From: Intoshia linei
Taxonomy: Eukaryota; Animalia; Orthonectida
Reading direction: 5' to 3'
Length of the DNA: 56,296 nt
Assembly: GCA_001642005.1 (NCBI GenBank)
Contig: LWCA01000088.1
Span: forward strand, 1-56,296
Shown here piece after piece: positions 27,989 through 56,296 of this stretch (positions are counted from its first letter, which is position 1; each line of letters starts with the position of its first letter). Made by a program: the position numbers and the translations under genes. The notes beneath the pieces were generated by a model. The model worked only from the letters and a program-made list of their open reading frames with translations, had not been told where the DNA came from and ran no database searches.

Positions 27989-28532
27989 TAGAGTTTCTCA
28001 TCAATATAAATTTTTAAGTAAATAAGACTAAGATTTATAGAGTATTTGAGAACAGGCTGATTATTGTAATGGATAATGTTAGGTTTCACCAGTGCAGAAA
28101 TAATTTCTTTATTGAGAAGAGAAAATGTAGAACAAATATTCTTACCACCCTATAGTTCTGACTTGAATCCTATTGAAAACTTATTCAGCGTAATAAAACC
28201 ACGCAACACGCGTCATAGGGCTAACACTCGAATTAGTTTAGTTACAAATATACAATTAGTTTTAGAAGAAATTAAAACAGAGCCTCTATTTTTCTCAATA
28301 CCTATAGATCCATGTGGAACAAAGTCAATATAATATTCAAAAGACAAGAAAACTAATGTGTAATACATACATTTTCATACATGTATTCATTTTAATTAAA
28401 ACTTTTAAATTTAGTCATAGACATTTTAATTCTTGTAAGATTATCATTAATCACTTCTACACTTGTTTGATGCTATATTGACACTTGACACTATATTGAT
28501 GAAAATAAAATTTATATTCATGAGAAACTCTG
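27989..28532 (+). mobile_element. Internally deleted Tc1/IS630-type element between VPS45 and ALG1
   Basis: TA-flanked ~26-bp TIRs (agagtttctcatcaatataaatttt / aaaatttatattcatgagaaactct). Encodes IVMDNVRFH and FLPPYSSDLNPIENLFS with a frameshift. Confidence 0.85.
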
Positions 28533-28619: not shown

Positions 28620-30873
28620 ATGGAAAAAACTGTAAGTATTTTGGTTCTTGGTGATATTGGACGAAGTCCGCGTATGCAATATCATGCTTATTCTTTTTTA
28701 AAGCGTGATTATAAAGTTCAATTAATTGGATATCTCGGTAATTTTTTAACTTGTGATGTAGTCTGTTAAAATTTGAAACGTGTTAAATTTTCCTACTACA
28801 AGTACTGCATATGAAGTATACTATATCGCGATAGTATTAATTTAAGTTTCTCGAATGTTATTCATTATTCAATTTTAAAGACGTTATGAATAAGTCTGAG
28901 TAAATACGAAATAATTTACAACAATATTGAAATCTTACCTGGCGTTTTCGTAAAATTCAATTTTATTAATCTGATAAACCGTAACCTTCTTAATTTGATC
29001 TTATTATTTAGGTTTCAATTCATTTGATTTTTTTAGAATCACGAATATTTGAAAACTTAATGAACGAAAGACATCTTACCGTATTGCCAGTTAAAACATT
29101 AACTTTTTTAAATTGTAATTTTTGAAACGGAATGGGACCATCATTACCGAAAAGGATTTTATTCTTGTAATTCATCATTTTTTAATGCGGTTAATTTCAG
29201 TGTTTTACATTTAATTCTATTGTATCTAAAAATCTGACAGTAATTCTCAAACTGGCTAGATATTAACATTTTGAAGGTGCATTTGAAATTTGAGCATTTA
29301 ATATAAAATTGTTTTTGTAAAATTACTCCAAAAATATAAAACTGCCCACTAGAAATGAAAAAAATTGGGTATAATTAAATTCATAAAATATTTCAGATTA
29401 AAAAATGATAATTTTGTATTGAATTATACCGTCAGTTAAAATGGCTTCTTATTCCTGTTTTAATATTTAAATGAATATATTTTTATACTCTTTATCATTA
29501 GATTTACCAACCATATTTCGAATTCTTCTTAAATCATTATGGCTTTTTTTCTCTTTAATTTTCACCCTACTAAAATCAAAGCATAGCAATTACTTTCTAG
29601 TGCAAGTATATTTTTAACTAATAGGTTTTGTTCATATTTTTTTAGAATCCACCATGTTTCCCGTCACTTGTCGTTGTTTATCTTTTATGTAAAATCAGAG
29701 GTACAGTATTGATATGTGATTGGCACAATTATACCTGGTCTATCCTTGATCTACAATATATGACGGGTTTCTTCACATCTTATATTAGGAGCTTTGAATT
29801 TTTTCTTGGACGCTTAGCACATAAAAATATATGTGTTAGTAAAGCAATGCGTGAAGATTTGTGGATTCATAATATACAGTAGTTTCAAAATAAACCTTGG
29901 TTTAGTTATATATTCTAGTTCTTCCGTTTTGTATGATCGACCTCATGAAAAATATAAGAAATTGCAAGAGTATGAACGCAAATCATTAAAAAAAACTTTT
30001 CTATCAAAGTAAGACATGTAGTATTTTATCAATCTCTAGAACTCGATTGCAGTTTGAATTTGACTTTGAATTGGCGGCTAAAGAGAATTGTGCTTTTTTA
30101 ATCAGTAGTACAAGTTGGACTAGTATTTTTTTATTTAAATTATTAAAAATTAAATTTCATTACCTTTTTAGTCGATGAAAAGTTTGATACATTATTGGAT
30201 GCCTTGATTGGTTTACTTAGTAAATATCATCAATATTCTTGCTTTTAGAGTATGATGAAATAAAAAACAGAAATGTTTTGAATATACCAACATTATTGGT
30301 AGTAATTACTGGTAAAGGCCATTTAAAAAGTCGCTACGAAAATACTATCAAAAATTTACGTTTAAAAAATATTACATTTATTATGCCTTGGCTGTCTGAA
30401 ATGGATTATATCGATATTTTAGGTTAATTTAAATTTATTTTTTTTACAAATTATTCTAATATACTAAATTAGCGGCTTGTGACTTGGGAGTATGTTTACA
30501 TGCTTCAACTAGCAAATTGGATCTACCTATGAAAGTTTTGGACATGTTTGGGTCTAATTTACCTGTTTTGGCTTTAAATTACGATTGGTTAATTTTTAAT
30601 TTATTTTTGATGCTATTTAAACCTTTTAGTTTGGATGAATTGGTTATCAATGAATATAATGGCTATACTTTTGAAACATCTCATGATCTTTGCATTCACA
30701 TTATGGTATAAATTTATTTTTGACAATTTAAGTATGTTTAGAATATGCTATCAAATTTCCCTAATAATTCGTCTAAGCTAAATCAAATTCGGGATAATAT
30801 AGAAGACTTTTTAAGTACAGAAACTTGGGATAGTAATTGGAATAATGTAATGAAAAACATATTAATTGATTAA
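28620..30873 (+). CDS. ALG1: Chitobiosyldiphosphodolichol beta-mannosyltransferase, multi-exon
   Basis: [19 protein letters not shown]; VQNPP; DWHNY; YDRP; ISSTSWT.DEKF.LL.AL; VITGKG; [19 protein letters not shown]. Confidence 0.95.
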
Positions 30874-30876
30874 CAG

Positions 30877-33800
30877 TTAAATAACGTAATGTTGAATGAT
30901 CTGTTGAATATTCATTGTCTAAAAATAAATAGTTAATTTAAATTATTTTAATAGCAATTTAGTTTTATTTATAGCAAGGCGCCTGATATACCATTCTTTG
31001 AATCTTCTGAATCAGTGGTTCTCAACAGGAGAAACTTCCCTCTAAGGGACAATTTTACTATTTGAAGAAGAAATTGAAAATTCAGAAATTAATTCATAAT
31101 TCGAGTAATCTAGTTTTAGTCGAAAGATGCATATGCTCAAAATTCTCATTAATCATCGTTATAAACACTATTCTAATATATTTCTAATACATAATGGGGT
31201 GCATGAAAAAAATAATGGCTCAATGGGAATAAGAAAAAATTAGTTGAAATCCACTATTCTAAAGTGTAAAATTGAAAATTTAACTTGAAAATCAATTATA
31301 AATTTTGGATGAAATATAATACGGGTTATTATTCACAATTCATTATTTTTAATGGATTTTCATTTATATTCCCAAAATGGAGTCCACAAAGATTGGCCAT
31401 CCGTGTTTGAAAAAAAAATAATAATTTCCGTGATCCCTCAAACATTTTATACACCCAGTCTAAACCGAACATTGCAGTGACAACTGATTTAGGACGGAAT
31501 GTTTTTTTATCCTTTAAAGTTTAAAATAAACATTATTAGTACAAAATGTTACAAAATCGCCGCAAAAAGAATGATTAATAAATCTGGTTTTTTGTATTTT
31601 GAAGGGTAAAATTGTTTTTATTTTAATTAATAGTAAACGTACGTCATATTTAGTATGAGATGATATTTGAATGTTTTGATTGTTTATGGTATTAATGTTT
31701 AGAAGCATCTGCTCTTCGAATGGTGTTTTCATTTTTTTTTCCAACTTTAGAGATTTTATTTCATCAATTTTATACGAATTGACAGATTTCTATGTAAATA
31801 TATTAAAAATTAAAAAAAGTGTTTCTTACATTATTTATTATTACAAAATTTGTATTGTTAATAGCTAATAAATGATCTTCTGGTGAATTCGACATCTAAA
31901 TTTTGATTAAAAATAATAAATGGCAAACAGTGTTTCAGTAATATACTAGACTAGCTTGCCGAGAACACTCTTATTATACCAAAAAAATAAATTCACGTTG
32001 AAAATCTAACTTAAAAATTCTACTATTCACTATTATCCATAAACAAGTGGTTCCCAAACTTGTTTCAGGTGGAACCATCATATGACATTACTATTGAAAA
32101 TCTAACTTAAAAATCCTACTATTCACTATTATCAATTCTTTAAAGGATGTTTCCAAATTTGTTTCAGGTGGAACTGTCATATCACATTACTTTTTACTTT
32201 AAAGTGAATTATTCCATCTTAATTTTTTTAACACATTTGTGTAAAAGAATTTTAAAAACAATTTATTCCCATTTTTAATTTATTAGACAGAATGTGTGTA
32301 TAATATTAAAAATAAAAGAAAAACAGTCCAATCCTAAAAATTGTCATAAATAGCATAAATTCCAGCAAAATAAAATTAAGAAACCTATTTTGTCATTTTC
32401 AATGTGATGACATATATTCAGTATCAATTTAATAAATAAATCCTAAAAATTGTCATAAATAGCATAAATTCCAGAAAAAATAAAATTATAAACTATTTTG
32501 TTATTTTGAGTGTGATGATATATATTCAGAACCCATTTAATAAATACTTAAAAATATCAATTGTGTATTAATAATTTAATTGAATAATTAATTTTACCAT
32601 TATTGCAAATGATTGTAATATGAAAATGATTGATGTTAAAAATCCGTCCATACTTTTGGCCTTTTTTCTTATGAATGTTATTTTTCTTTTTAGCATTTTC
32701 AAATTAAGTTAAATTAAGCTAGTATCAAAACTTTTATAAATTCGTTGCCGTAAATATTGTTCAAAATGTATGGAAAATGAAAATTTGAAATTTTTTATGT
32801 GTGTTAACAGGATACAACTGTACAATCTGTAATTTTTTTTAAATTCTAGGGCTGTTTTCAAAAAAAAAAAGAAGGGAATTTGGAGTTTTGGCCATGAAGG
32901 TATAATTTTTTTAAATTTAAATTTATGATAATGTTTATGATGTTAAAATCCGCATTAGCGTATATATTTTTTAAATTCTCCAATCGTTTAATTTTCAAAA
33001 AGAGGGACAATAGGGGTTTTTGACCCTTAAGATGTGAAATTGGGAGGTTGAAATTTATCTTATTATACGCCCGGAAAAAACTGTAATTGAAATGTGGTCT
33101 TTAAAAAATTCTAAGAGTGCTAGTTATTTTAAAAAAGTAACACACACAGACAGACAAAAATCGCGTCGCATTTTATATAAGTTAGGATAAGTTTGTATAC
33201 GTATTAATAATGTTCCCTTTAAAACAGGGTTTTCCAACAAGCGGGATAGACTTTTGAAAATTGGATTATGCAACCGTTTTCAGTTGACATGCATGACTCA
33301 AATTATATTAAATTAAATTTAAATGGAATGAAAATATAAATAATAATTTTATTTGATAATTCACCTTATAGATTGAAAGTGATGATAATATACCTTAACA
33401 TTTTGAAAAATGAATCCATACAATGGCCATTTAGAAAGAATATTAAGAAATAGTCTTTGTAAATACAAACTATCATGTTCTAAGTGTGTATTAAAATGTT
33501 GATTAGCTTGATAAATCCTAGAAACCCACTCATTGGTGGGTAATTTAGCGACCGTTTCAATATATTTTGGAAGTATTTTTTTAATATATTTTTTAGTGGA
33601 GTTCAAACTTGAAAATTTTTGAACAATAGCAGATAAAATACTAATTTGATTGCAAATACCATTCTTTGATAGATTATTAGGTACATCAGCAATATAATAT
33701 CCTGATAAATAGTAATTCATTACCTATACAGTAGGTATAATTAAGTAAATTATTGAGATAATACCTGATTAAACTGTTCATTTATATGAAAATCGTTTCG

Positions 33801-36800
33801 TAAATTTTTCAAATCAAATTTGTCCAAATTGTGGACTTTTATTATTAGATATATCGGTCTACCCTTTTTGTAGTTTATGTCATGTAAATTTTTAACATCA
33901 TTGATGTAATCATTTAAGAGCAAAGGTATTTTACATTTATTATTTGATTTAGTATCATGAAATATCATGTAAACTTTGTAATTTTCTATTGTATCATCTT
34001 CTTCAAATGGATAACATTTATTATATTTTAGTAATATGTCTCTAGCGGTCTAAATTATCAATTTGAATTTTTTAATTTTTATATTTGAATTTTTTAATTA
34101 ATATACTAGTTTAATATATTACAAAAAAGTGCCCGGTATATATAAAAACATTGTTATACATAGTTATTATATTGTTATAATCTTTTGTTAAATTTTACTT
34201 TGTGAGAAACTTTTCAAAAAAATTAAAAAAACACAGTAAATAGTAAATTCCTGATTACCAAATACAAAATCTTTTGATAAATTTTTTTGCTCATATGTGT
34301 ACTCATATTTTAAGATTAATTCTGCCATACATTTGTAAACCTTAACCGAAATATCGTCTTGATTCATCTTACAATCCTCCCTCTCATCAATGACTAAACA
34401 TGTTTTCAATTGGTCTCATTTAATTTTTAACTTCGGAAAAGTTTAATTACTTTTCTACAAGTACAAGTTGTTATCTAGCGAATAATATTCTACTTTATAT
34501 AATTACCGATAATGATTGAATTTTGCAAGTAAAACACTTTTCACTTATGAGATATATATTTTCTTGATAAATGACTGAATTCTAAAAATGATAATTATAA
34601 CAAAATTAATTGATTCAGTTCAATATCTAAAATGGAGATTCTACATGAGTGGGATCACAATCTTGCGAATTTGATTATTTATGGGGCGATCATAATTTTT
34701 TAAAAAAAATCACCCTACGCAAAGCAGAACCTACCAAACTAGAGGCCCCGAAAATGAGAAATAAGTTCCTATAAAGATTTTTCGCAAATGACCCCCATCC
34801 ATCCTCCAAGACACTTGACTAGAAATTTAATTTAATTTAAAATTTAACATACAAAATAGTTATTATACTCAATAATATACTTTTTTAATGCTTTGTTGGG
34901 GAAAAATTATGATTTAATTTTTTATCAAAATCCAATAAATAATTACATCGTCGATCAAAATAATTAATTCCAATAAAATGAAAAAAAATGGGTTAAATTA
35001 CACTGATCTAGTGATTATCTTGCAAAGAATTTTTTTAAATTAAATGTGTCAATCAATATGAAAAAAATAATTAAAATACATGTTAATATTAAATAATTAT
35101 ACACGTATCAATAAATTAATACAGGGGTTCCCACACTTTCTTCACCGCGAACCGGTAATTTACTAAAAAATTTCTCGCCACCCACTAAAATGAAATTACT
35201 AGTAAAATTTAAAAAAATACTATAATATAAATTTAAAAATTAAAAAACATTATTTACATACATTAAATGTATTTATATTATATTTTAATTTGAAATATTT
35301 TCAAAAAAATTTTCCACGACCGTCAAGATTCAAGATTAAAAAATCAATGAAATTTAGAATATAAAATATCTATTGACATCTAATTTGAATATGTGAGACT
35401 ATAAAAAATAAATTAAAATTACGTAATTACCAATATATTGTTAAATTCCTTTTTTGACAAGTTATTTTGGTACAATTTAGTTTCAGGTACTTGTAAATGG
35501 TATATTATTGACTGTATCAAATCTAAATGTCAATTTTATTTTAAATTGAAAATGTTCTGAAATGAAGGAATGAAAGTCAGACAAAGTGATAAAAATATAA
35601 AAAATAAAATAAGCATTATTTTTAGCACATGTCAATGGAAGTAAACGTGTCATAATTAAATTAAAAGTAAAGTTTTTAAAAAACCTTACAAAGCTGGTAT
35701 GTAAATAATACAATTATTTTATATTACAATTTTTCCTTGTTTATAATTTATAATGAATTTATTAGAAAATTTTAATTATTGGATAAGGTAGATTATAATG
35801 GGTGATTTTTACGGTACCCCTAGATATATTTCAATGAGAGGGCCTTTTTTCCAAAAACTTGAGTAGTAAACATTACACTAAAAATAAATAATTCTCATTG
35901 AAAATGTATTTTATAGATTCAGAGTTGTCGCGAGGTAGGTCTTAATTAAATTTAAATTACCTTTGTATGGTGGATATATAATATTCTTTGCTGTATATAG
36001 AAAATCCTTTACAGCATTTATAAGTCGAATCGATGGTAAGAAATATAAAGTTAATATATATAATTGCACAAAACCCATATGAACACTTTCCCTAAATTAA
36101 TCAAATTACATGAGATCAAAAATGGTTTCTGACATAAATGGTACTATACAAAAATAAATTATTAATACAATAATGTAATAATTATAATGTAGTAATACAG
36201 ATTTTATAAAAACTTAATATTAATGAAAAATTTAAACAGTACGCTTCCAAGCTATAATTATCTATCAATTGTTTGCAAATTTGACAAATTATTTCATCTT
36301 TTAGGTATGAGCACTGCTTAGATTTCTAAAAAATATAATATAAAATTAATTATTGAGTTTTATAGGAGTATTTCGTGATCGTCAAACATTTTATCATTGA
36401 CTATATTTACAATCGCGGTACTATAATGTTTCAAATTGACAAACGGATGAGTTTATAATGCAGTGATTAATAATTAGTGTCTCAGGGTCCCTAGGGTGCG
36501 AAACTGAGGGTTCGTGCGACGAAACTAAAATAATAGTAAATTACTTTTAATGGCCACATGACCAATTCATATTTATTTTTCTTTTGCGAATCTTCCATAA
36601 ATGTGTGAATGTCTAAATTTTGTATTTAATATGGGTAACATTATGTATGGTATAACATAAAATTAATTTAAGTATTTATTTTATACATAATACACGTTCG
36701 ACCATCTTCTTGTTGCAGTTACCGAAAAGTGCATACTACACCAGGGCCGTGGACAGGGGGCTAGGGGCCATATAGCCCGGGCCTACAATGATGAGCGACC

Positions 36801-39800
36801 TACTTTTTAAATTTATTAATAGTTAATGTTGGAAAATGTCTTAAGTATACAAAAATTTCGACAACCAATGTGATTTCCAAAGGTTATTTTTAATTTTATA
36901 TAATGAACGATCGATTAAGCAATGCATGAGGTCCTTTTGTAAAAAATTTTTTATATGGGCCTATAATTTCCATCTGGCCCTGGCCGACTTCTGGCTCTCA
37001 ACGGTGTAGTAACTACAGACGTGCATACATAATACAATATTTTCAATAATAAATATCCATTCTAAAAAATTCTTAAAATAGTTTCCGAGTAGCGGAAAGC
37101 GGAACTAGCTAGCGCTTCAAGCTTAATTATGTTATGTGGCAGAACTCTGTAATATGCTGTATAAATTTCCATATAATTACATTTAAAAGATCTAACAGCC
37201 AATTTATTAATATGAGGATCATTAAAATTAATTAAAGAATCTTTGAGATAACCCTAAATATATATAAAAGTATTATACGTGGATAATATTAACTACATAC
37301 AGACTTGGTGTATATTTTATTAAGTCATTTATTTTCCTTTTAAAGAGAAAACCATTCGAAAACCATCTAAAATTTTCAAAAAAATAGGCGCAGTGCATAA
37401 TATATATCCCCAATAAATAAATGTGCCAATATTAAAATATTAACTTTGGAAAAAGTCCTGGGAACTCGTATCAATCCTTAAAAAAAGGATGACAAATAAT
37501 AGGGCAAATTAAATAAAATTCAATCACACAAGTTGTTTTGAAAAAGTTTATGGTAATAAAAAAAGAGAAATTTTCAAAATTAAAATAAAATAAAACTTAC
37601 ATTTGTCCATCGCAGTTTCTCTTTAACAGCTTCAGTATTATCTAAATATACTAAATAATTAAATTTAAAATTTATATTTTACCTTCATCTCGAGTATGGT
37701 ATTTAATATTTTGATTTAGTGGTCTAAATACATAAAAATAAAATAATAAAATACACTAATTAATGTTAATTAAACAAATTATATATTGTAAAGAATTTAA
37801 TAAAAATATATAAGTTTAATCAATACCCAATATTCTGGCGTCTAAAATGTTCGACTCCAAATTTAAGCAAAGAATTATGCATCCATTTATAATTTTCTGA
37901 TTTTTTTATTTCGTCCTCATACTATTATATTAAACTGAATAAAAAGATGATTTAAAGACTACAATAAATGAAAAAAAACGCCAAAACTTTTAATTTAAAA
38001 TAACGCTTTTGTAATACACTCAAAAAATATATAAAAACATTATTTGGTAATTATGGATTAATAAATGTAAATAAACTCAAATTTAAGTTTTAAATTAAAT
38101 TTACTTTGATAAATTTTTCTTGAAATAATTCAGAAGGAACGTTATATAAAGGTACTGGGGTTACATTTACTGGATCAATGTAACCTTTTTTGTCTTTATA
38201 GTTTCCATAATAATATCCTATATAGTAATATTAATTTATTAACTTTTTCATCAGTATAACTATGACAGTTTGTTGGCGGTATCAAAACCACCCTACCTTT
38301 CATAATTCAATCTATTAATTCTTACTTTCATACATTAGAACAAAACAAATAAAAGATTTAAATATTAATTAATAATAAATGTAGTAATACTGATAAATAA
38401 ATATTACCATCAAATTCACTAATTTCTTCCAATTTAGCCAATTGCCCTTTTTTACAAGATAGAAAATTTTCATCGTCAGATACCACATTTCTAATAAACT
38501 CAACATATACATTGTTCTAAAATTGTAAAATATAAATATACGCAAGTAATTTAAATAATCCCGTGCTATAAACATGTATTTTGTAAAATGTTATAAATTA
38601 TTATAACTTATAATTATAATATATGTATGGTAGTTTTTTTGAATAAAATTAAGGCAAGGCCTCAAAAAAAAATTTTAAATAAAAAAAATATAATTTTGAA
38701 TTAAGGCATTTTTAGAGAATCCTAAAATGAGCTGTTATAGGTAAAGGGGTGAGAAAAATAACAATAGGATTCAAGCAATAGAATAAGCAACATTGTAATT
38801 GTATACTTTTATGTGAAATAAAAAATTTTAATTATATTTAACGAACCATCTTTAAATTATTTATAATTTAATACCGATTCAATTTCTGTTAAAAAGGCTT
38901 CAATTAAAAGGTTGATTTGTTTAGCCTATATAATGAAATACATTTACAAATTTAAACTCCTTACATTTGAAGCATATATAACGCGAGTTTTTCTTTTAGT
39001 TTTAACAAGTAAACTATATTTTGATGGACAATATAAAGCCAGAATTTGATTGTACCTAAAAATACATTTCATCAATGTTAACATTCAACATTCAACAAAG
39101 ACAACTTACCACATAATTTTTTCAATAATAATATTGTGCTTATTTTCCCAATGACTTTTTTGTGCAAATATTATGAAATTGCTGTGAATCCCCAATAAAT
39201 GACAATTTTTGTCTTTAGAATTCTGTAAAATTTTAGTATTAAAAATAAATTTCTTATAATTTGCAATAAATATAAAAATTTACATAAATATGATAATATC
39301 GACAGAAATATGTATCACTATTTTTTATGCTTTTAGTTAATTCCAACTTAACATCCATTGGTATAGATTTTGGATCTGTTTGTCTGTTTATTTTGTGTCG
39401 GTCTTGATAATAAATTTAATATTTCAAATAAATCTAAAACCTAAAAATAATAGTGCAAACATTCGTCTTTCTTTTGAAATTTTAACACAATGAGTATCCA
39501 ATATATCTGATAATAATTGATCAAATATAATTTCCAAATTTTCTTCAATAATTGGTTCAGTGGGAGAATAAAACTATCAATACATTTTTAAATTTTTACA
39601 TATACAAATATCAATATAATATTTTTTAAAGCTTAATTATTAGTCATCTAATTTATCTCAATAATTTAAGTTAAAGTTTCAAATTTAAAATCGAATAATT
39701 ATAAAGAGGCTCGACGAAATTCATATAAAATTAAAAGTTTTTTTTAATTTCGTAACTATATTGTATCAAATTTAATATAAGTTAATGTAAAGTGCTAATC

Positions 39801-42800
39801 CACCCTCATGGAGAAGTGGCTAAGACTATGACATTAATCATCATTTTTCTATATTTATAGTGCATAATTTTGATTTTCTGGAGCTGATCAATAATAATAT
39901 CTATAAGTTTGGTTGGCAGTAATATTATTGCCTTTTTGATCAATCAACTAATTAATAATGTTCACTAAAGTGGAGGCGAGATACTTTAAAATTTTCTATA
40001 TAAACGCATTTAAAAAAAAGTATCTAACAATTAAGCAATGTTTTGTTGAAATTTTTTTTACTAATCAAGGGTAACACTGAGAAAGTGTTTGGGGATCACT
40101 GAATTAATACATTGTATATTTAATTATTTACCTCCTTTCTTAGTTGTAATTTACAAAAGCTATTCGGGTACTTCAACCCAAATTTGTAAAGGAATGTAAC
40201 ATTATCAACTACATATATCTCAATTTTTTCGTCATCCGTTGAATGTTTATCTTTTGATTCCAAAATAATTTTTGGTGTTTCTGTAATAGTTTCATTATTG
40301 TAATTGTTACACTTGTCAATATTCTCATTCTTTTGGTTTTCCATTTCTAATAAAATTAATACATAATCATTTTGACAAAATAATGATGTATACACACCTA
40401 TTATTAATTAGTTAATTACTTAAAAATTGAATATTTTGATAATTTTTGCGTAATTTTGAATCAATCGTTTTACTGTGTTTCCACGTACCATGATTCTATA
40501 ATAAAATATTATAATATTATATAAGTTAATAACTATATATATTTTGTTTAAATAAGTGTTGGTTAAAGTTGGTCATTTCCGCCGAGTGTAGCTAGGTATT
40601 ATAAAAACGTTTTACAGTGAAATTTTTTTAATTTTAATTGTTGAAATAAAGTTACGGCAAAACAATGCATTGAATTCCTCTTTTTAAAAATGACTATATA
40701 ATATTATATTATTAATATATTATGCATAAATTGTATTTTTGTGTCTTTCGACACAATACCTTTTCCTAACATTTTGTATGTCATCCCCATTTTTTCATTT
40801 TCTAATTAATAAATAAAGCAGGTATATTAAAATGTATATTAAAAATTTAATCCAAAATTTAGTTGGTAGCAGGAAGATTATTAATAATCATTTATTGCGA
40901 GATTATATTGATGTATTTCAAAATATAAAATTTTAATTTCAAAAGATTAGGAATTCCAACTTGGAATAACCCGTTTTATATAAATTATGGTTAAGTGATA
41001 TTTGAGAGCCAAATTTTTTTGAGGAGTATCACGATTCGCGACATTTCTTTGTACGTGTAGGGTGGAGCTGACATAAATTTGCGACGAATCGAAAAAGTTA
41101 TAAGGTTGCTAAACTAGAATCCTTTAATTTCCTAGGGTCAGTGAAAAATATTCAATTACAAAAATATTATAATAGATGTTATATAATGATTTTTAAATTT
41201 TAATAAATTAGAGTTTTTGAAAAAATTTTATCAAAGCCTAAAAATGTAGACCTGTCTGTTATTTATTTGTTCCATTTTATTTAAGAAAGTAAGAGTATAG
41301 AGTTTAAAAAATAGCACTTTTTAGTACTAATTTTTCGTTGATTAGATTGTATCGCAAATTTCATTTTAAGAAATGTCATGGTTTTTGACCTGGAAGGACT
41401 TAAATTCGGAAGATAAAAAATAGATATTAACGTCTTTGCGAAAAAAATGTAATTCAAAATTGGGTTTATTTAAATTCTACGATAATTTTATAATTATACG
41501 GTAAAACAAAGGGACAGACACACAGAGACATTCAATTTTATATAATAAAGGATTTAGTAAAAATATATGTCTGTTTATTAGGGTGTGCACTTTTTTAAAG
41601 ATCAAAAAGTATATTTGCATATAGGTGTATTTTTATATGCTGATCACGAATATGCAAAAAAATTCATTTAATTGAAATTTTTTAGGCAAAATTTTAAAAT
41701 GCATTTTTTTTTATTATTATTGCAACGTGAACATTAGTTTATTATTTAAATTATTAATTAATTTCATTTTTCTAATATCTCATGTCACAACCAAAAAATA
41801 TATTATTTAGAAAAAAATTGAGATTGGCACGTCCATACGGAATACTTATTAGTAAACCTTTAAGCAGCTCATCAAGATTACCTACAATAAAGAAAATCTT
41901 GGGAAGATATCATTTTTTACAATTGGCAAATCCAAGAAAATCAAAGCATACTCTTGGGATAAAACTGCAATAGAATTATATGATATCTGGAATAAATTTA
42001 CACTCGGTCCACTTCCATTATGTTTAATAAAATTAAAAATTAAAACTTTGATGAATAAATACATTTTATATGTTAAAATACTTCGTTATCACCATCAATT
42101 TAAAGAAACTTGGAACAGTATATTTATATTGAGAGATAAAAAAGTGACGATACAAGAGGAAGATGAAAAGTTTCTACAAATGCAGATAAATACAAACGAT
42201 TATCAAATATACTTTTTGAAATTCAAAAAAAAATGTCAAAAGTGCACACATTACTGTTTATTTATTTGTCTGTTACTATTTATTTATTAAAGTAATAAGC
42301 CTGGAATTTTAAGAATAACAATTCTAATACAGTTATCGAGGGTGATGTTTTATCGCAAATTTTATTTTCAGAAATTGATTCCTTCAAACTCAAAAACCCC
42401 AATTATCCTTTTTTTTTAAATCAAACGAATCTTAAAACTATAAAAAATACATAATCTGATAAAAATTTTAAAATCATCAAAATTATGATCAATTTCAATT
42501 TCAAAATCTTATTTCTTCACGGCCAAAACCCTACACCTGCTTTTTAAGTTAAACCACTGCAATAAATCTCAACTTTCTTCGAATTCGAACCTAAACCAAA
42601 AATTTTTTTTTTTTTTACATCGTTCACCTTTTAATCAAGTTTAATTTTAAGTAAATTGTTTTAAGTTAACACATATTAAATTCCAGTGTGAACCTACCAC
42701 ACCGAGATCCCTCTTCGTGGCCTCGACGATATTTTTGTAAATGGGAACTCATTTTCCCATTAACCATTAAAAAATTTATACTATTGAATATCATAACAAT

Positions 42801-45800
42801 TTTGTGTTAAATTGAAAATATCAAACCAAGAGCTTAGAGAGGTGACTGGGGCTACCTATATGATTGTAGGCGAATCTACAATTTTCAACATATTTCATTA
42901 AATCATCTAATTTAATATAATCTTATGAGAAAAAACCAACATTTTACCAACCCTTAAGGAAGAAATCCCTTTTTACCAATATTTTTTTTAAAAATCCATT
43001 TTTACCAAAGTTTTAGAATAAAAACTACCCTATCTGATTCCAAAAGAAAAAACCAAATTTTACCAACTTTTATAGAAAAAAATAGCTTTTACATATATTT
43101 TTATGAAAAATCCCATTTTACCAACATTTTAGATCAATAATTCTTCTGACTGATTCCATAAGAAAAAACCTGATTTAAAAAAAATTTTAAAAATCTCCTT
43201 TTACTAATATTTTTTTGAAAAAACTTAATCATTAATTTTTCGGAAAACAATTACAAATAATTGGACAACAAAAAAAATTCCCTTAAAAACCGATTTGTTG
43301 ATACATTAGAGTGGAAGACATAAAAAAATATGTAAATATTAATAATGACATAAGAAAAGATATCAGTGACTGTCTTGATTTTGTGTGCCCTTCGCTAACA
43401 TTTGAGAAACTGGGGAAAAGTCAAGAATGTAACTTTTTGATTAAAATATTTTAAATAGACCTTGAATACAATCTCATTTTAACTTTTTAATTTGAAGTAA
43501 AATGATATATTATATTATTATCAAATGTATTACCCACGGCCGCACGTTGTGCACCCCTGGTCTAGAGTCTATATCTTTGTAGGTTCGGCTCTGTTAAATT
43601 CAATCTTGCATATGTGGTTATATCTCTGGCTCATTAAATTTAAATTAATTATACGATAATTCGGTTCGATTTTTCACTAATGTTTCCTTATTGGTCACCA
43701 ATGTGATACAACTGAAAAAATGTTGAATATAGGAAACACCACAAAGAAATTATTTATAATCAGAGATTTATGTAACTATACATGATGAACATGATGTGAA
43801 GTTGCCTTGTGGATTGTGTGGTTTAATTTTTATTGGAACCCAAATATTTTTCATGTTCCGAGGCATTATGGACGACTTTGGTAAACCCTACCAAATTTGA
43901 TAATTCCCAATTTTAAATAAATAAATTATCAATTAAAATAATAAATTATCCATTTATATTATTTATAGGATAAAAAAATAAATATCCCAAATTACCTAAA
44001 AGTGTTTGGGAAAAATAATTATTTTAAATGAAAGTTTCAAAAGATAAATTACAATAATCTCATTGTTTAATAAATTTTTTTGCTTCTTTTTTAAGGCCAT
44101 CGATAACAAACCATCAGTTCTATCAAGTTTTTTTACATTTTTTGAATCTAATCCTAAAAATAAAAATTTACATAATTTATTATTAGATTTTACATTATAC
44201 AATAATATTACAAAGACAAATTACCAAAATTGTTCCTTCCATTTTCGTTTTGAGAATTCAATCTTTTGGTGTAATTATCTATATTACCTGGTTCAATAGG
44301 CTTGCCATTTGCTCCAATACTTCCAAATATGTGTGCAATATTTTCACCTCTTGATTTGATTGCATTTGATATTGGTATATTTAGAAAATTTTTCTAATTA
44401 AACTTTGTCATTGTATTTATTAATTTTGCATACATTTTTCATGATTTAAAAATAAATTAAAGTAAATACCTACTTGTTAGTTGATATATTTTCATTATCG
44501 AAAAAAGGTAATAATTAGAAAAAAACTAAAAATTACTGTAGTATTTAATTCATTTGAAAACGATATTAAATATCTAAAGCCATGCATAAAGCATTAGGTC
44601 AAATAGGTACTTGAGATAATTAAAATTTTATATAAAAAATTGAATACATCAAACAATTTAAAGTTAGAATCCAGACACAAATAAAATATTACCAATGCAC
44701 AATAATGGTAGTTAAATGGATGTCTAAGTGCATTAATAAATTGCATAGCTATAATAATCGGATAAATAATTCAATGAAAAATCCCTTAGTCAAGTGCATA
44801 CTGATCAGACACAAAAATTAACCCTAAAATTACTAAATGTTGAAATCAATTTTAAATTACAACCGCCAAGATCTCATTATTAAATATAAAATTAAACAAC
44901 TCATAAAAAAGAGAAATTGATATTTCTGAAACCTATAACCTTAATGTAATTGCGGTAATTTCATTTAAAATAATAATAAATGTTTTGTTCATTTAATGAA
45001 GCGATTATAAGAGTTATTCTGAATCTATAATCTTAGTCATTTTGAAATAATGAGTTCCGACTTTTTTATATAGACATTTCAATTTAATTATAATTATACA
45101 CCTTAACAGTCAACGTTCATATTCACGTTCATAGATATAATGTTTAAGCATTTAGTTTAGTTCACTTACAGTGTTTAAGTGAAAATGTTGCATTATCTGT
45201 ATCGAACTACACACTATGTACTTAAAAAACTAATTTTTTGATAATCAAAAAGTTACCTTATCATAGTTTTTTTTGTCTTGTATAGTTAAAGTATAATCGT
45301 TAATTTGTTTTTTAACGTACGTGTCATTTATCGTTTCTATTTCACCCTTAATTGGTTTCAATTGGCCTTTTATTAAAGTATTTTTGTCTTGTGGTAGTGG
45401 AATTAAATTTTGATTAAAAATGTTAGCATTTTCATAAACATCCAATTCATGAATAGATTCTTCATCTGGAAAATTAATTTCTTTTTTAATTTTGATTTCA
45501 TCATTTTCAACATAAAAAGAATTTAATGAACTAAACTTTGATATAAAATCTCCATTTTTATCCCGATTTATTTTAAAAATTGTATTGGTCACTTGTGAAA
45601 TTGATTTACTCAATTTCCTTTTCATGTAAAATTTTCGAGGTTCATATGCTTTACGTTTTCCGTTGCAATCATTCACTTTTTCATCTGTCATGTATTTTGA
45701 ATAATTTATTAGACGTATTGCGTGTGAATTTTTCAATCGTATTCTAAATTACACTCAACAGTTTTTTTTAAAAATAGTTTATATATAAACTAACAAAATT

Positions 45801-47480
45801 AAATTTACCCAGATTGCTTATCATTCTTGTTGGAATTTTCAATGTTACTATTTTGAGACAGTAAAACCGGCAGAGTTCCATTTTCTGGTCCTACAATGGA
45901 TTCACATTCAGTAATTGCATCCATAATGTACTGGTTTCCAGCCATATGTATGACATTATTTTCTGCAGTGCGAATCTGAATGGACCAACCGTTTATCAAT
46001 GTATTTATATTTCTAAATTGGGTTGTGTAATGAATAGTTTTGTATTTGGAGACCCACTTTTAAATAAATTTAACCGTTAACATTTAATTTTTAATCCCAA
46101 TATTTTAAATTTTTAATGTTACTTTTTTGTAAACCAAATAAACAAATTATTGTAACCGTGGTTGATACATGCTTCCTAAGACCATACGTTAGTTACATTT
46201 CAGCAAATTTTAAAATATTTGGTTCCGAACCACTGATATGCAATTAATGTAAACAATAATAAATAGGCATACTTATAGTAATAATAAATAAGAGGGTAAA
46301 AATTACACTTTTTCAAGGCATTCTACAGCTAAATCTTGACAAATCGTAAACGAGCCAACATTCATCATTTCATAGCTTTCTAAATATCGCGTAAATGACA
46401 AAATTAACAAATTATATAATTTAATTACTATGTAGCTTGACTGTTATGTACTTCGTACAAACAGCAGCCAGTAATTTAATATTTGTTTCTGATAATTGTG
46501 GATTAATATATATTTAATTACCATTATTGATTTCAACGTCCAAACAAACACATTTTTCACTAAGTATACTTTTCCATTCCAACATGGAAGGGTGATAATG
46601 TCTTGGAATACTAATATCACAAAAAAGTACATTAATACATTTATCACGACAAATCTTTGCTTGGCTGTTTTCAAAATTTGATGAATGTCTAAATATTTTT
46701 AAAAAGTTAAATTTTAAAAAATTTTGAATTTGCGCCAAATATTATTGTATATAGGTCATTTTTTATAAATTGAAATGATGTTTATAAAATTTACCTGATG
46801 ATAAAGTGAATCAACTTTTTACTCGGTATACAACAACACAAAAGTGCAGCTAAAATTGCCCAAGAGTTATTTTCTTCATTTTTATTTTCGTACTTTAAAG
46901 TTTGCGCGATAATTGAAATGGTCAATTCATTAATATATTTTATAAAGCGAATAGCTTTTTGAATCAGAATATTGGCTTCATTAATATTTTCATACGTTAT
47001 CAAAGGTTGCTTTATAAAATTTAAAACCTAGATTTCATATTATTTATCTGATTAACCAATAAAAATACCGATCTATGCAATTTTACAAATTCAGTGTAAT
47101 GTTCATCATCCTGAAGGTTGGTGTATGTATCATTAATAGGTTCAGTTTTGAAACAAAATGTTTCCTTCTAAAATTAAAAGTAAGGATTTTTAAATTAGTT
47201 CAGTATAGATAATGATTTGTTCTTTGAGGGTTAAACGAAACAGTAAAACTAACAAAAATATTGTCATTAAAACGGATATGGTGACTTGCATATTTAAAAT
47301 AGTTATTTTTATATTAACCTTTATATATTCATCAATAATATCCTGCTTTGTGGTTAAAGGTATTTCGACATTTTGAGTCAAAGTATGGGGTGCATCTATC
47401 ACTACCTCCAAAAAATTTTCACTAGTCAATGGGTTCCATTGAGATTTTTCAATTTCAAATTCTATACTTGAATCATCCAT
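30877..47480 (-). CDS. Myosin-XV-like tail protein (MyTH4-FERM-like-SH3-MyTH4-FERM), no motor domain in the gene as read
   Basis: MyTH4-1 (VLNFIKQP..ILIQKA..NEL..WAILAALLCCCIPS; PRHYHPSMLEW..LDV); Myo15-like GWSIQI..MAGNQYIMDAITECE; SH3 (YVEFIRNVVSDDENFLSCKKGQ..GYYYGNYKDKKGYI); MyTH4-2 (KDSLIKF..LKDEIICQICKQLIDN); FERM (ILPKY..EW..FLNILSKWPLYG). Last exon 30918-30877 reads TMNIQQIIQHYVI*. Some internal exons are not fully resolved. Confidence 0.8.
31013..31256. mobile_element. hAT/Buster MITE
   Basis: Ends cagtggttctcaac / gttgaaatccacta. Flanks ttctgaat/ttctaaag. Confidence 0.7.
31951..32032. repeat. Dispersed repeat end, inverted copy at ~51164-51248
   Basis: ctagct..ccgaga.cac..ttattatac.aaaaaaataaattcacgttgaaaatctaacttaaaaat is nearly identical to the reverse complement of the 51.2-kb copy. 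Confidence 0.8.
31998..32192. repeat. Tandem duplication (~96 bp x2) including a hAT-like end
   Basis: ttgaaaatctaacttaaaaat..ttgtttcaggtggaac..acattact occurs twice in tandem. Confidence 0.8.
32330..32547. repeat. Tandem duplication (~109 bp x2)
   Basis: aatcctaaaaattgtcataaatagcataaattccag...gtgatga.atatattcag...atttaataaata occurs twice. Confidence 0.85.
32860..33187 (+). mobile_element. Helentron/DINE-1/Lep1-like non-autonomous repeat; related pieces at ~1690-1750, 24740-24830, 41300-41552, 42330-42545, 53400-53462
   Basis: Shared cttcacggccaaaacc and tatcgcaaatttcattt motifs (either strand), and a 3' acagacagac-type microsatellite followed by ttttatata. The superfamily assignment is inferred. 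Confidence 0.5.
36742..37010. mobile_element. Second, uninterrupted copy of the hAT MITE at 20630
   Basis: cagggccgtggacag end. Shares gggcctacaat..agcgaccta..atttattaatag..ttggaaaat..cttaagtat and tatgggccta.aatttccatctg with the 20630 copy. Confidence 0.8.
41580..42200 (+). mobile_element. Degenerate DNA-transposon 5' remnant (possibly Sola2-like)
   Basis: Broken frames LYDIWNKF..IKLKIKTLMNKY..FILRDKKVTIQEEDEKFLQMQ, antisense within a myosin-tail intron. Confidence 0.35.
42920..43559. mobile_element. hAT MITE remnant with a periodic ttttaccaa array and a TIR identical to the 10382 family
   Basis: ttgtgcacccctg ending at 43559. The ~30-bp units are the reverse complement of those in 26287-26858. 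Confidence 0.6.
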
Positions 47481-47682
47481 TTAGTAATCAGAATGTACAC
47501 ATATTTTATGAATCGGAATGTATGAGTAATTTAAATTTAATAGTCTATTTTCGGTTGGCTAATTACGAACTTTGCAAATTGAATTGATTTCTGGGCATAG
47601 TTACCATTTTTAATCACAAAGAAATTCATTGGTTTATAGGCAATGAACAACTTAAATTTAGGAAATATATGGTTAAATGGTT

Positions 47683-50600
47683 TTATTTACAATAGTCATA
47701 ACAAAATAAATTTAATTTTTGGTTTAAATTATGATAAGTTTGCAACCTTTTGTAGTCTTTATATACATCTTTATTAATGTGCACTTTTGCAGCACGACAA
47801 ATGGTTTTTATTAAATTTGTATCCATATCTTGAAAAATTGGTCCTTTGAGATATACTAAATTGTTAAATTAATACATTAGATATCTTGTATTTCTCAAAA
47901 ACCGCGCAAAATTAAAAAATGGCAAAAATTCGGTCACCCTCATAAATTTTAATAAAATATAACTTAATGTTCATTATTTCAAAAAATATTTATATATTGT
48001 ATTGGGTTGTCTTTTATATGAATTTACAATGAATATTTAGTGCTCAGCTAAACCGACAAAACTACCAGGGAGCATTAGTTACATAACCCCACCTATGCCT
48101 ATGTGATGCCACGACCCCTGATACACATTATCACTATATGCATGAGATATACCAAATAATCGTCTTAAAATTACATTCAATTATTTTGTTAGACCCAGAA
48201 ATTCTATTTTTAGCCATATTTTGTAAAATTCCAATTTGCGTATCCACTTTCTTTTCACTATTTAGATATTCAGCTTCAGATAAAGTCTATAATAAAAAAT
48301 ATAGAAAATTAAAAAATTTTTTACTTGATTTAATTTTAGAAAATTATTTAACTTGATTTCTTTTTCTGAATTAACCAATTTAAAAAAGTAATTCTTAATA
48401 AAAGTAGAAATGTATGGACAAAATGGTAATAATAGATTTAAATAGTTGACAACGATCAAAAGCATCAATTTTAAAGAATGTAATTGATTTGGGTGACTTT
48501 TTGAATATTCCTAAATAAAAATTTATTTACATATTGTTAACATGTAAATTTTTTTACCAAATAAATATCGCAAAATGTAAATTTGAAAAAATCATGCAAT
48601 AGAATTATAGCACTGTGAAATTCAAATTTATCCATATGAAATGAAACATCGTTCATCATTTTATGTTTTTTTGACAATATCCAATAATCCATCTCCGTAT
48701 AATCTCTGATCTACATTAGAAATAAACGTCATTGTTAAAGTAGTACATGATAATAAATATTAATGCATTATAATAGTATTAATAATATTATTTTATATTA
48801 AAATTTATCAAAGTTACCAATATATCAATGTTGTTTAAATTATTTTTTTCAAATCCCATAATAATAAATCTAGAGGCCTGCCAAATTTTATTGAGAAATC
48901 TATTCCATGCTTCAAATTCATCCAAGTTTATATTGAGAAACCGAGCTAATTTTGAATAATTAAATTAAAAAAATTTATTTCATGCGCCCAATAAAGTGTA
49001 TAAAATAAAAGTACACGTTGAACAATGAGAAAGCAAAGAAATTCTTAACGCATCAACTCCACATTCTTTAATGTTTTTAGAATTATTTTTATTTACTTTG
49101 ATTGACTAAAATTAAATAAAATTAAAATTTATCAATAAAGAAAAATATACCTGACCTCCTTCGACAATTTGTAATGGATCAATTACATTACCGACCGATT
49201 TACTCATTTTTTGACCCATGTGGTCTCGAATAATAGAATGTATGTAAACCTTAATAAATATTTAAATAAATATCAGATTATATTTATTTATATATATCAA
49301 TATATTTGTGACATACCGTATCAAATGAGAGACGATCATCAAGTTCGATGGATAGCATAAGCATTCTAGAAATCCAAGCATTAATTATATCTGATGCAGT
49401 AAAAATTAATCGCTTTTTCGATTTTATATCCTAATAATGATTTAGTTTATAAAAATTGAAAAAAATAGATACTCACTTTATAGATGTGAGGTATTAAAGC
49501 CGAAGAAAACCATGTATCAAGTACATCTGTTTCTAAAATAGAAATTATAAAATAAAATAGAATGCAAAATACACGATTTTCAATCATAAAAGTAAACTAA
49601 ATGAATCTAAAAATGTGTTCTGTAAAGTGTAAGATCACTTTTAAAAGCGTATATATTAGTCGTCCCAAAAAAAATATTTTCGACTTCTTCTAGTCTTTAG
49701 AATATTTAAATATAAATGGCCCCCTATTGCTATTAAAAAAAATGAAATCATTTTTGCAAATTTATACGACTGAACCTATCTACCGAGAACCCTCGAGGGT
49801 ATGTTTGTATTTGATTTGATTTACGAAATTTTTGTAAAAAAAATCTCAATTTTTGCTAATTGAACATTAAAAATCAATACATTAATTTAATAATTTGCTA
49901 TTAACATCAATAAGACATTTTTTGTTGTGTGTAATAATTTTTTTATTCATTTCATAATAAAAAAAATTAAGTTCGACAAATAAATAAGGTGATAAGGTGG
50001 GTAAGAAGGATAAATGTTAATTATTCTTTACAGATGCAAAAGTGATAATTATATTTCTCACAACGAAAAATACCATTTTGCCTTGGCTGTAAAACCCTTG
50101 TTTTCTAAAAAATGAATGGAATGAGAAGATAATTTTTAATAATCAGAATTGTTTAAATTATAACTTAATAAGACTCATTATAAATCAAAATAATTTTAAT
50201 TTAAAAATTTGTAAAATATTGGGTGAAAAAATACGTTGAAAAAAAAATAAGACTGAAATCTTAGAGCCCTAGGTGGGCCTAGTTGGTCATTTGGACAACA
50301 CTGGTTAATATAATGATTAATTACCTTGTGAAACTTTTACATTACATTTTCCAAATTTTTTTTCAAAATATTCTTCAGCTTCACTAAGACTTTTCTTTGC
50401 ACAAAATTCTGTATTATTATCCTAATTTTTTAAATTTAACGTCTAATATAAATAGTAAATAATGAATGCAACTTTTTGGAGGCGTTTCAATCAATTACTT
50501 TAATTGATTGATTATTATGATTAAATTTCATAATACATTTACTTTCTAAAACGATATCCGATTTTAATGTCTATTCATTCATAAGATTTATTTGAGTGTA

Positions 50601-53600
50601 ATTGTATAAAACTATGAAACATTAAATAATTATTTAATTTACACCAATATTCACATAAAAAATCATGATATTTTTACCTATCAATTTTATTTCACTAAAC
50701 TATATGAACGAGTTCGAGAATTTAAAATCATAAATTTAAATTTAAAAAAATTTACACATGGTACAGTTGTTTCCATTTAACACACACAAAAAATTTTAAT
50801 CCGAATAAGTGACGCCTTCATGGTTAAAAAACCATTTTAGTATTCATATATTTTATTAACATTATACTATGTAAAACAAAAAATGTGAAATAATTAAGTT
50901 CAAAAATTAAAAAAAAAGATTACTCTGATAGAGCTTATTCCAGTTGATATAAATACAAAAGTTCAACCCGAGAAATCTACCATATTATCAACCAATATTT
51001 TTCAAATATTTCGATTAAAATAAAAATTGAAAATTTAAATATTGATCCTACAATTTCAAAAAAAATGTTCATTGAACGTCTACACATTTCCAATAAAGAT
51101 ATAATAAAAATCTATATAATTCATTCCTTCGAAATTTTTTTTATTGTTTTTCATATTGCATTTTAGTTAATAGTACGATTTTTAAGTTAGATTTTCAACG
51201 TGAATTTATTTTTTTAGTATAATAAAAATGTGCTCTCGGTAGAGCTAGGTGCTGCAATTGGCCATTGCAATGGTTTGGAGGTTAATTGTATGAAATAACA
51301 AAAATGGTCATTTATAAATAACCATAATGAGAATAAATATTTTTGACAAGTATTATTCTAGAAAATGATAAAATAAAATTTGAACTTTTCAAAAATTTAC
51401 TAACATCAATGCAATGTATTGATTTTTAGGTGTGACACATTAAGGTAGATATAATATTATTTTAAAAAGTTTACAACTTTAATCCAATAAATAGGTAACT
51501 TGTGACCCCAATCAATTTGTCTTGACAGACACCATGATCTAAATTTGAAAATTATAATATAATATATCCAGAGTATAAAGTCATATTAATGTAAATGGAA
51601 CCATGTAAATTCATTGGTAAATCATAACATTAATAAATAACAATAAATACTCGTTAAATCGATTATTTAACCAATGCATAAACTCGGTTTTATATTTTTC
51701 AGGAATAAATGTAAGCTTATCTTCTTTCAAAATCTAGTAAAAAATAAAACAAAGAAAGTCATATAAAACATTAGATAACTTTGTAGATGATTCCTTGCAA
51801 TCCAAATGCCATTGATTCAAAAACATTGGTTCGATTAAATCACCGGATCGTCTATTTATATATTAACACAAAAAGTACATAGAACATACATATAAAATAA
51901 TGTACATATATTTGAATTTGACAGTCACTAAATGACGGGTCGGAATAATGGAATACTATTCTAAATTAATAGTTACTCTTAGAAAATTACTTAATTATGT
52001 CAAAATCATTTACCATTAATATTATATTGAACATAAGAATCAGTGATGTGAAAATAATTCAATCAGAGTTCTCAGCATCATAATTTTTTTAATGTTTATA
52101 CACTATATAGGGAACAATGTTGGCTCTTCACGATCATGGGTTTATTAGGTTAATTAATTTTTATGAAAAATTCCACTTTTAAATATAGTAAAAATTACCA
52201 TAAACCGTCTAAATTAACTAGTAGCAGTAACAAAGTCAATTTAAAATTTTAATACAATTAATTTTACTGGCAGATAGAAACGTCTGTTTTGTAATCATAA
52301 ACCTTAACCAACCTTCCAGTGCTTGATAAAATATCTGCAATTAATTCACGCATTTTAAATCGATTTATTCCCTAAAAAAGTATATATTTTCTCCACAATA
52401 TATATCATATTGAGGCTACTACAAACTGTAGTTTTACTTAATTAGTTGTGATATTATAAAAATCGAATCGTTTTTCAAATTTTGGTGACAACTGGATTAA
52501 TTTATCACAATAATTAATATTCTAACATACCTTTTAATTTTTTAAAGTCTTATTAATTAATAAATAACAAAACTAAATTAATTAATTACTTCAAAATGAC
52601 AAGAAACATTGATCATATTTCCGGATTTATCTATTGTACAGTTCCCTAAACCGAGATTGTGCGATTTGGCTATTGTAAAATCTTTATTGTCGTGTAATGG
52701 TGTAATTTTCATTGCTCCTATCAATTTAATTAAAGAATTACTAAAATATAACCTGTTCCAAAATCTTTGTACACCATAGTATCTGCAATAATGGGCAATT
52801 TTGTTTTAAGAATAGGATGGATGGCGAATTTTTTATTAAATTTTAAATAACGAATATCGTCGGGATTGACACATATTGCAACATCAGCTAGTAATGTTTC
52901 AGGTCGTGTAGTTCCGATAGTTATATATTGTCCAGCTAATTTCAAAAATCATGTATAAATAAGTGAAATTATTTGACATACGCATTTGATCAATTTCATA
53001 TTTAATTTCAAACATTCGACCGCAGTTGACAGGTTTAAAATACGACGGGAATTTTATTTTATTTCCCGGTTTAATAGATTTCTTTTGGACCTATATTTAA
53101 TTTATTAAAATTTCCGCAAAAACATTGAATTATCAAACAAACAGTTGATACATCTATTAAGGGTGACGTTTACCGGTATACATTTTTTGAATTAATATGT
53201 TGTAAATATTTTATACTTATACCGCTTATACAGGTATATAAATATTTAATAACTAATAAAAAATTTTAAAAAAAATTAATTTAGGATTTTAACCAGTAAA
53301 TGCAAATTTCTGATATTGACATTTATCTTACTTTCCATACCAGAAATAAAACTGACTCAAAATTTGTGTTTCGTAATTTTTTTTTATTTCTGGGAGTGCT
53401 AGGTTTCTAAATAAACGGTTACAGACATACACATACTTTAGAAACTTATACTTTATATCAGTATTATCCATAAATTACCTCAAAATCAGCAATAGAAGTT
53501 TTAAGAAAACAACACCAATTTACGCAAGACATTTTTCTTTTAATTTTTCCTTTATCAAATAACTGAATAAAAGAATCAATAACACTCTCACAGTGTACCT

Positions 53601-55910: not shown

Positions 55911-56296
55911 TCATAGTACATAAACATATCATATAACATATTTCCAAAAGTGCCACTAGAAAAATCAAGGGACTATATAAAAATTTTTCTATTTGTGGCC
56001 AAAGTAAATTATACATTGTAAGACCCATAAAATTTTTTATATATATTTTAATGTATTAATATACAATTTATTTCAAATAGATCAATTCTCTTGTAGTTTT
56101 ATTTAATAACTCACAAAACATATTCCTCCTTAATGTTATCATTCACAACATATCTTGCAAATACATCAGTAGATTCGTCCAATTGTAAACTAAATTTTAC
56201 TAGGCTTTTTCGAAGTTCCATAACTTCTGCTAAATTTTTAAACCTTTTACAAAGGAATTGATTTAAGTGCCCCTTTTTGTTTTTCGCCAAGTAGAA

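Follow-up and report, generated by a model that had tools for sequence, protein, structure and literature searches.

A transcribed, probably stand-alone gene of Intoshia linei for a putative headless class XV myosin

Myosin classes are defined on the N-terminal motor domain (PF00063), and class XV includes MYO15A and Drosophila Myo15/Sisyphus. What, then, is a gene that encodes the tail of such a myosin and no motor: a gene in its own right, a short product of a larger gene, one half of a split myosin or a relic? The question is raised by a minus-strand gene of the orthonectid Intoshia linei, hereafter the tail gene, on contig LWCA01000088.1 (assembly GCA_001642005.1). The window analyzed here is the entire contig of 56,296 nt, which is AT-rich, with a GC content of 0.21–0.35 per 2 kb and very short introns. 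An initial annotation, made from the sequence letters, had proposed a motor-less class XV gene that is either a stand-alone cytoskeletal adaptor or half of a myosin whose motor is joined by protein interaction or trans-splicing. The motor-less, class-XV-like tail gene is borne out by spliced RNA contigs, an in-frame stop before the ATG and a better match to myosin XV than to myosin VII. We conclude that the locus is probably a stand-alone, transcribed gene derived from a class XV myosin but headless, and that its product likely serves as a passive adaptor.

The gene is covered by spliced contigs from three runs (X2, X3 and X4) of unrecorded kind, all from one later study; the splicing of the contigs is the reason for treating these runs as RNA. 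A further run, X1, is DNA. Among the joints listed for the contig alignments (15 of 69 in one region and 15 of 33 in the other), contigs of X2–X4 skip 18 introns of the tail gene, all with CT..AC ends, corresponding to GT..AG on the minus strand. The same contigs skip CT..AC segments in the neighboring valyl-tRNA synthetase (ValRS) gene and GT..AG segments in the plus-strand glycosyltransferase gene. All these segments are read straight through by X1, and X2–X4 therefore hold spliced RNA. The resulting gene is as follows.

30877..47627, minus strand: whole gene, putatively headless and myosin-XV-like; 32 exons, 31 GT-AG introns and an open reading frame (ORF) of 1427 codons, the 5' limit being the furthest RNA contig end

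The frame runs unbroken over the 32 exons from ATG 47480–47478 to TAA 30879–30877 and encodes 1427 residues, and all 31 introns of the gene model are canonical GT..AG. The remaining 13 of the 31 introns were placed from the deposited protein model together with canonical splice sites, and were verified by exon-length sums of 846 and 2547 nt. Only one of six splice combinations tried gives both the 1427-residue open frame and an exon sum of 846 nt between 37181 and 39440, the exact length demanded by the coordinates of X4 record 10. Exons 10–31 total 2547 nt, in agreement with the coordinates of X2 record 1, in which 31643–31789 falls at record positions 2401–2547. The deposited model from the same contig ('hypothetical protein A3Q56_01253 [Intoshia linei]', here P0001) has 1231 residues; it lacks exons 1–3 and exon 5, and its last exon (31045–31107) is wrong. 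The corrected protein, which the RNA contigs support, has 1427 rather than 1231 residues and includes a complete FERM F3 lobe. One intron of the gene (40496–44052) measures 3557 nt, very long for this genome, and contains a 144-codon plus-strand ORF (41856–42290) with no Pfam match.

The encoded protein carries MyTH4, FERM-like, SH3, MyTH4 and FERM modules in this order, which is the tail order of class XV. Pfam was run on the 104 minus-strand stop-to-stop pieces of at least 38 residues between 30007 and 56296, two of which matched MyTH4, at 46794–47027 (E 2.7e-6) and at 36185–36325 (E 4.1e-5, below the curated cut-off). On P0001, the same family was found at E 1.2e-9, along with SH3_2 (E 0.006) and RA_2 (E 0.014), both below the cut-off. 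A protein search with the exon of the first MyTH4 returned no homologue. Reference proteins were three longer relatives obtained by a further protein search: a fish myosin-VIIa-like protein (P0002), a myosin-XV-like protein of 2811 aa from the crinoid Antedon mediterranea (P0003) and a fish myosin-VIIb (P0004). The modules are distributed over the exons as listed below.

46307..47167, minus strand: exons 2–5, pre-MyTH4 helices and MyTH4 domain 1 (residues ~55–245); Pfam MyTH4 E 2.7e-6 to 3.2e-6, phmmer domain 1 against P0003 858–1140
44053..46012, minus strand: exons 6–9, a weak RA-like F1 lobe followed by a long N/K-rich insert; RA_2 E 0.007–0.014, below the cut-off; RNA joints
38875..40495, minus strand: exons 10–16, FERM-like region before SH3, matched by myosin XV only; phmmer model 654–864 against P0003 1842–2059, 55.7 bits; precomputed PF26570 on P0001
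38105..38516, minus strand: exons 17–18, SH3 domain; SH3_2 on P0001 633–676, E 0.006, below the cut-off; aligns to the start of the P0003 SH3 region
35431..36612, minus strand: exons 23–26, MyTH4 domain 2; Pfam MyTH4 E 1.2e-9 on P0001 806–887; RNA joints
30877..34581, minus strand: exons 27–32, C-terminal FERM and stop TAA 30879–30877; phmmer P0001 799–1161 against the myosin VIIa MF2 chain 5mv9_A 107–457, E 5.8e-7; RNA joints

Residues 799–1161 of P0001 align to the C-terminal MyTH4–FERM of myosin VIIa and VIIb structures (four sequences, E 5.8e-7 to 3.2e-6). No PH-domain family appeared in any Pfam scan, those of the minus-strand pieces and of P0001 included, and Pfam matched no IQ motif in exon 1 or P0001. 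A protein of the PLEKHH/MAX-1 type, with PH domains before a single MyTH4–FERM, was ruled out, as there is no PH domain and two MyTH4 domains flank an SH3.

A phmmer comparison of the 1427-residue model ranked the crinoid myosin XV first (E 1.4e-44, 139.7 bits), followed by P0002 (E 6.3e-21, 61.3 bits) and P0004 (E 8.5e-15, 41.0 bits). The match to P0003 consists of three colinear blocks, in which model residues 13–289, 654–864 and 951–1368 correspond to P0003 residues 858–1140, 1842–2059 and 2190–2610. Of the three references, P0003 alone matches the first 95 residues, which precede MyTH4, and the block before SH3. Additionally, database annotation assigns PF26570 to P0001, a family that the protein atlas names MYO15 and whose nearest neighbors there include myosin-XVB clusters. 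Judged by sequence against these three references, the tail resembles class XV more than class VII.

The same alignment locates the truncation. P0003 has its Myosin_head at 62–728 and its best IQ at 791–810, and residue 13 of the Intoshia protein aligns to P0003 residue 858, about 45 residues past the last IQ; 12 residues of its own precede the homologous region. A cut exactly between neck and tail, together with a tail kept intact and expressed, speaks for gene fission, in which a class XV motor-plus-neck gene would lie elsewhere, possibly on another scaffold, and the two products would cooperate non-covalently or by sharing cargo. However, the 12 leading residues show no evident docking module, the contigs bear no trans-spliced leader, and we are aware of no case in which a myosin is rebuilt from a head and a tail made as separate proteins. 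Fission is thus unlikely in our judgment, and there is only a very slim chance of a naturally split myosin, with motor and neck encoded by a separate gene at another place in the genome and with head and tail acting as two polypeptides. If true, such a split myosin would be the first with motor and cargo-binding tail encoded apart.

The case for a headless derivative depends on the motor, for which the scaffold was searched by several methods. Myosin_head (PF00063) matched none of the 104 minus-strand ORF pieces. Six motor motif patterns gave no match in 3110 six-frame pieces of the scaffold; of these patterns, those for P-loop, switch I and switch II were each recovered in all three references, and a fourth in two of three. 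A hidden Markov model (HMM) of the motor built from the three references reached an E-value of 1.9 at best on the scaffold, and tblastn of three full-length myosins against it returned 15 matches at E up to 10, with no motor match better than E 0.11. The match at that value (P0003 450–478), the only one of the 15 from a motor region, lies within the tail gene itself and is probably fortuitous. Upstream of ValRS, the segment 54388–56296 gave no motor signal by Pfam, tblastn, motifs or HMM. Conservation is usually much stronger in motor domains than in tails. The assembled RNA and the scaffold contain no motor, and the protein is therefore likely a motor-free adaptor.

Whether the tail has a transcript of its own is decided at the 5' end, where two features meet.

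47319..47627, minus strand: exon 1; 147-nt leader, ATG 47480–47478 and 54 codons; contigs X2 record 9, X3 record 13 and X4 record 16
47683..54387, minus strand: ValRS gene, the upstream neighbor; tRNA-synt_1 and Anticodon_1 matches; contigs X3 record 14 and X4 record 17

The RNA-supported 147-nt leader carries four in-frame stops, the last of which, TAA 47483–47481, is the codon directly 5' of the ATG; the frame therefore cannot extend further within exon 1. The contigs end in exon 1 at 47627 (X2 record 9), 47593 (X4 record 16) and 47568 (X3 record 13), each at its own first or last letter and with zero foreign 5' letters, and a trans-spliced leader sought on these three contigs was not found. 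A myosin-class tail without a motor thus lies on its own transcript: the three contigs end within 47568–47627, and the ValRS RNA contigs are separate records. Misassembly at 47480–47700, a check called for by the initial annotation, was ruled out, as DNA contig X1 record 3 is continuous across 47137–48308, a test whose value is limited because X1 possibly derives from the same sample as the scaffold, and the RNA contigs of the later study reproduce 47319–47627 with 0–1 differences.

Several details of the initial annotation agree with the sequence: the in-frame TAA directly before ATG 47480, the lower gene limit of 30877, which is the end of the stop codon, and the same-strand ValRS ORF ending about 200 nt upstream, whose last piece ends at TAA 47685–47683, 203 nt above the ATG. 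The stated distance of some 54 codons to the first MyTH4 is correct for exon 1, but exon 2 adds 33 codons before the MyTH4 exon, the Pfam match begins at about residue 108 and homology to a myosin XV begins at residue 13. Of its two interpretations, the stand-alone adaptor fits the data, whereas trans-splicing of motor exons finds no support in three contigs that end in the leader without foreign letters.

Terminal ValRS exons at 48286–48175 and 47855–47683 would account for the last 288 nt of X4 record 17 and tentatively place the end of the ValRS RNA at about 47680; enumeration of ValRS 3' exons gave either no solution or 4577, and this provisional pair of exons is the only ending that agrees with the remaining length. 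About 50 nt would then lie between the end of the ValRS mRNA and the outermost tail-gene base with RNA support (interval 47627–47685), and therefore the tail-gene promoter must overlap the ValRS 3' end.

These data also bear on whether the transcript is a headless isoform of a larger gene, with motor and neck exons past the end of the scaffold, an intron of more than 8.8 kb on the same strand that would enclose ValRS, and an internal promoter driving the tail. Headless Myo10 arises in this manner (PMC6345916), the scaffold ends at 56296, and the tail gene tolerates an intron of 3557 nt. The median Intoshia intron, however, measures 57 bp (PMC6543705), and the contigs of the three runs show neither branching nor foreign letters at exon 1. 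Furthermore, any acceptor must lie below the TAA at 47481, and the segment between ValRS and the scaffold end is free of motor signal. We regard such an isoform as very unlikely.

Sequence divergence raises the last alternative, a decaying relic, that is, a functionless transcribed pseudogene left after loss of the motor exons. The divergence is extreme: the sole match of the 120-residue FERM exon among 1.84 billion representatives is the protein's own record, and FERM_M is undetected by Pfam on P0001. Human MYO15B, moreover, was long held to be a transcribed pseudogene (PMC7947357 and PMC13249394). Yet the whole genome is fast-evolving, so divergence alone says little, and the frame remains unbroken over 1427 codons and 32 exons, with 31 canonical introns and all five tail modules still alignable. 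A relic is highly improbable on this evidence.

Several points weigh against a stand-alone gene of this headless kind. The scaffold stops 1.9 kb above ValRS, placing exons farther upstream out of view, and the motor search covers the 56-kb scaffold only. A control HMM from three tails detects the real tail exons weakly (E 0.0013, 0.012 and 0.078), and exon-wise searches are therefore insensitive in this divergent genome. X2, X3 and X4 all stem from a single study and none is on record as RNA; their contigs cannot prove a transcription start, and assembly drops rare isoforms. The class assignment is based on three reference proteins, of which the myosin XV is the sole invertebrate, and PF26570 was not reproduced by our own Pfam scans. 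One contig, seen in X2 alone and with a depth of 30, breaks off after codon 12, at 47444, and continues, past seven foreign letters, in a high-copy repeat at 51146; it thus holds just the first 36 nt of the coding sequence. Both sides of this joint are T-rich, it adds no motor sequence, and it may reflect insertion of a polymorphic repeat, a partial second copy of the gene's start or a fit by chance. Finally, the motor-free cytoskeletal adaptor role, which we consider likely, is one that we only infer.

With these points taken into account, a transcribed headless derivative remains our preferred explanation, and it suggests the following course. An ancestral myosin XV gene would have lost, or become separated from, its motor and IQ exons. 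Transcription would now start at about 47630–47660, within the ~50 nt that separate 47627 from the end of the ValRS mRNA. Since the product presumably cannot walk on actin, its role would be that of a passive scaffold or linker, through MyTH4 contacts with microtubules and FERM/SH3 contacts with membrane receptors or cargo; given a motor-bearing partner, it could instead compete for cargo, as reported for headless Myo10. That an animal whose genome is drastically reduced has kept a double MyTH4–FERM tail intact and expressed suggests a task for which no attached motor is required. The evidence for a motor-independent tail role has so far rested mainly on the headless Myo10 isoform, and the Intoshia gene offers a natural test case for what MyTH4–FERM tails do alone. 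Tail-only myosin descendants are overlooked because surveys find genes by their motor domain; this one was deposited as a truncated 'hypothetical protein'.

At its 3' end, the gene converges with a glycosyltransferase gene.

30741..30918, plus strand: final exon of the ALG1-like glycosyltransferase gene, overlapping the last exon and 3' UTR of the convergent tail gene; contigs X2 record 1 and X4 record 10 bridge both genes; Glyco_transf_4 E 0.0018, below the cut-off

The tail-gene stop (30877–30879, minus strand) lies 4 nt from the end of the last glycosyltransferase ORF (30873, plus strand). RNA contigs run through both convergent genes, and each 3' untranslated region is therefore antisense to the last coding exon of the other gene. 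At the opposite end, the class I tRNA-synthetase and anticodon-binding Pfam matches of ValRS lie between 48540 and 54026. Other genes on the scaffold comprise a RanBP2-zinc-finger RGG protein, RRP4, a Sec1-family gene, the glycosyltransferase and hAT and DDE transposase remnants, with no myosin among them. The transposase remnants, of hAT (dimerization domain) and DDE_3 (Tc1/mariner-like) type, occupy 13692–14911, 28070–28333, 54485–54700 and 56114–56296, one of them just upstream of ValRS. High-copy repeat fragments occur at 50560–51379, 46433–46466 and 31884–33296, inside ValRS and tail-gene introns, and the word depth of these repeat segments reaches hundreds to thousands in DNA and RNA-like runs alike.

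Headless myosins are already known, as a Myo10 isoform and as plant class XI genes. Our search of the open literature, which extended to no non-open journals and to no supplement but that of PMC5583752, turned up no account of a headless class XV gene among the titles and abstracts listed, and none of the myosins of Intoshia. The supplement of PMC5583752 mentions neither that genus nor headless myosins. The initial annotation had set the gene apart from other motor-less MyTH4 proteins, a distinction that holds for the PLEKHH type, given that no PH domain is present here, but headless myosins as such are in print. Headless Myo10, the brain isoform of vertebrate myosin X, is a natural motor-less MyTH4–FERM product transcribed, like the Intoshia gene, from its own start (PMC6345916). 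The gene behind this isoform also yields the full motor, and the isoform keeps PH domains and a single MyTH4–FERM, whereas the Intoshia gene belongs to another class, has two MyTH4–FERM units and has ValRS directly upstream. The stand-alone headless class XI genes of plants, AtMyo11E2 and Myo11E4 of Poales, are likewise transcribed tail genes that persist after loss of motor exons, and AtMyo11E2 has also lost its IQ exons (PMC3850447). These encode a coiled-coil and DIL tail and are recent duplicates beside a motor-bearing parent, in contrast to the Intoshia scaffold, on which no parent is visible. Human MYO15B, according to PMC7947357 and PMC13249394, is a class XV paralogue without conserved motor residues, whose motor is thought to be non-functional and whose role is unknown; it misses conserved motor residues only, whereas the Intoshia gene is without any motor or neck coding sequence. 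Compared with class XV myosins as represented by the crinoid P0003, the Intoshia protein differs in the missing motor and IQ neck and in its far smaller length (1427 versus 2811 aa), and shares with them the tail order and, of the three references, the best sequence match.

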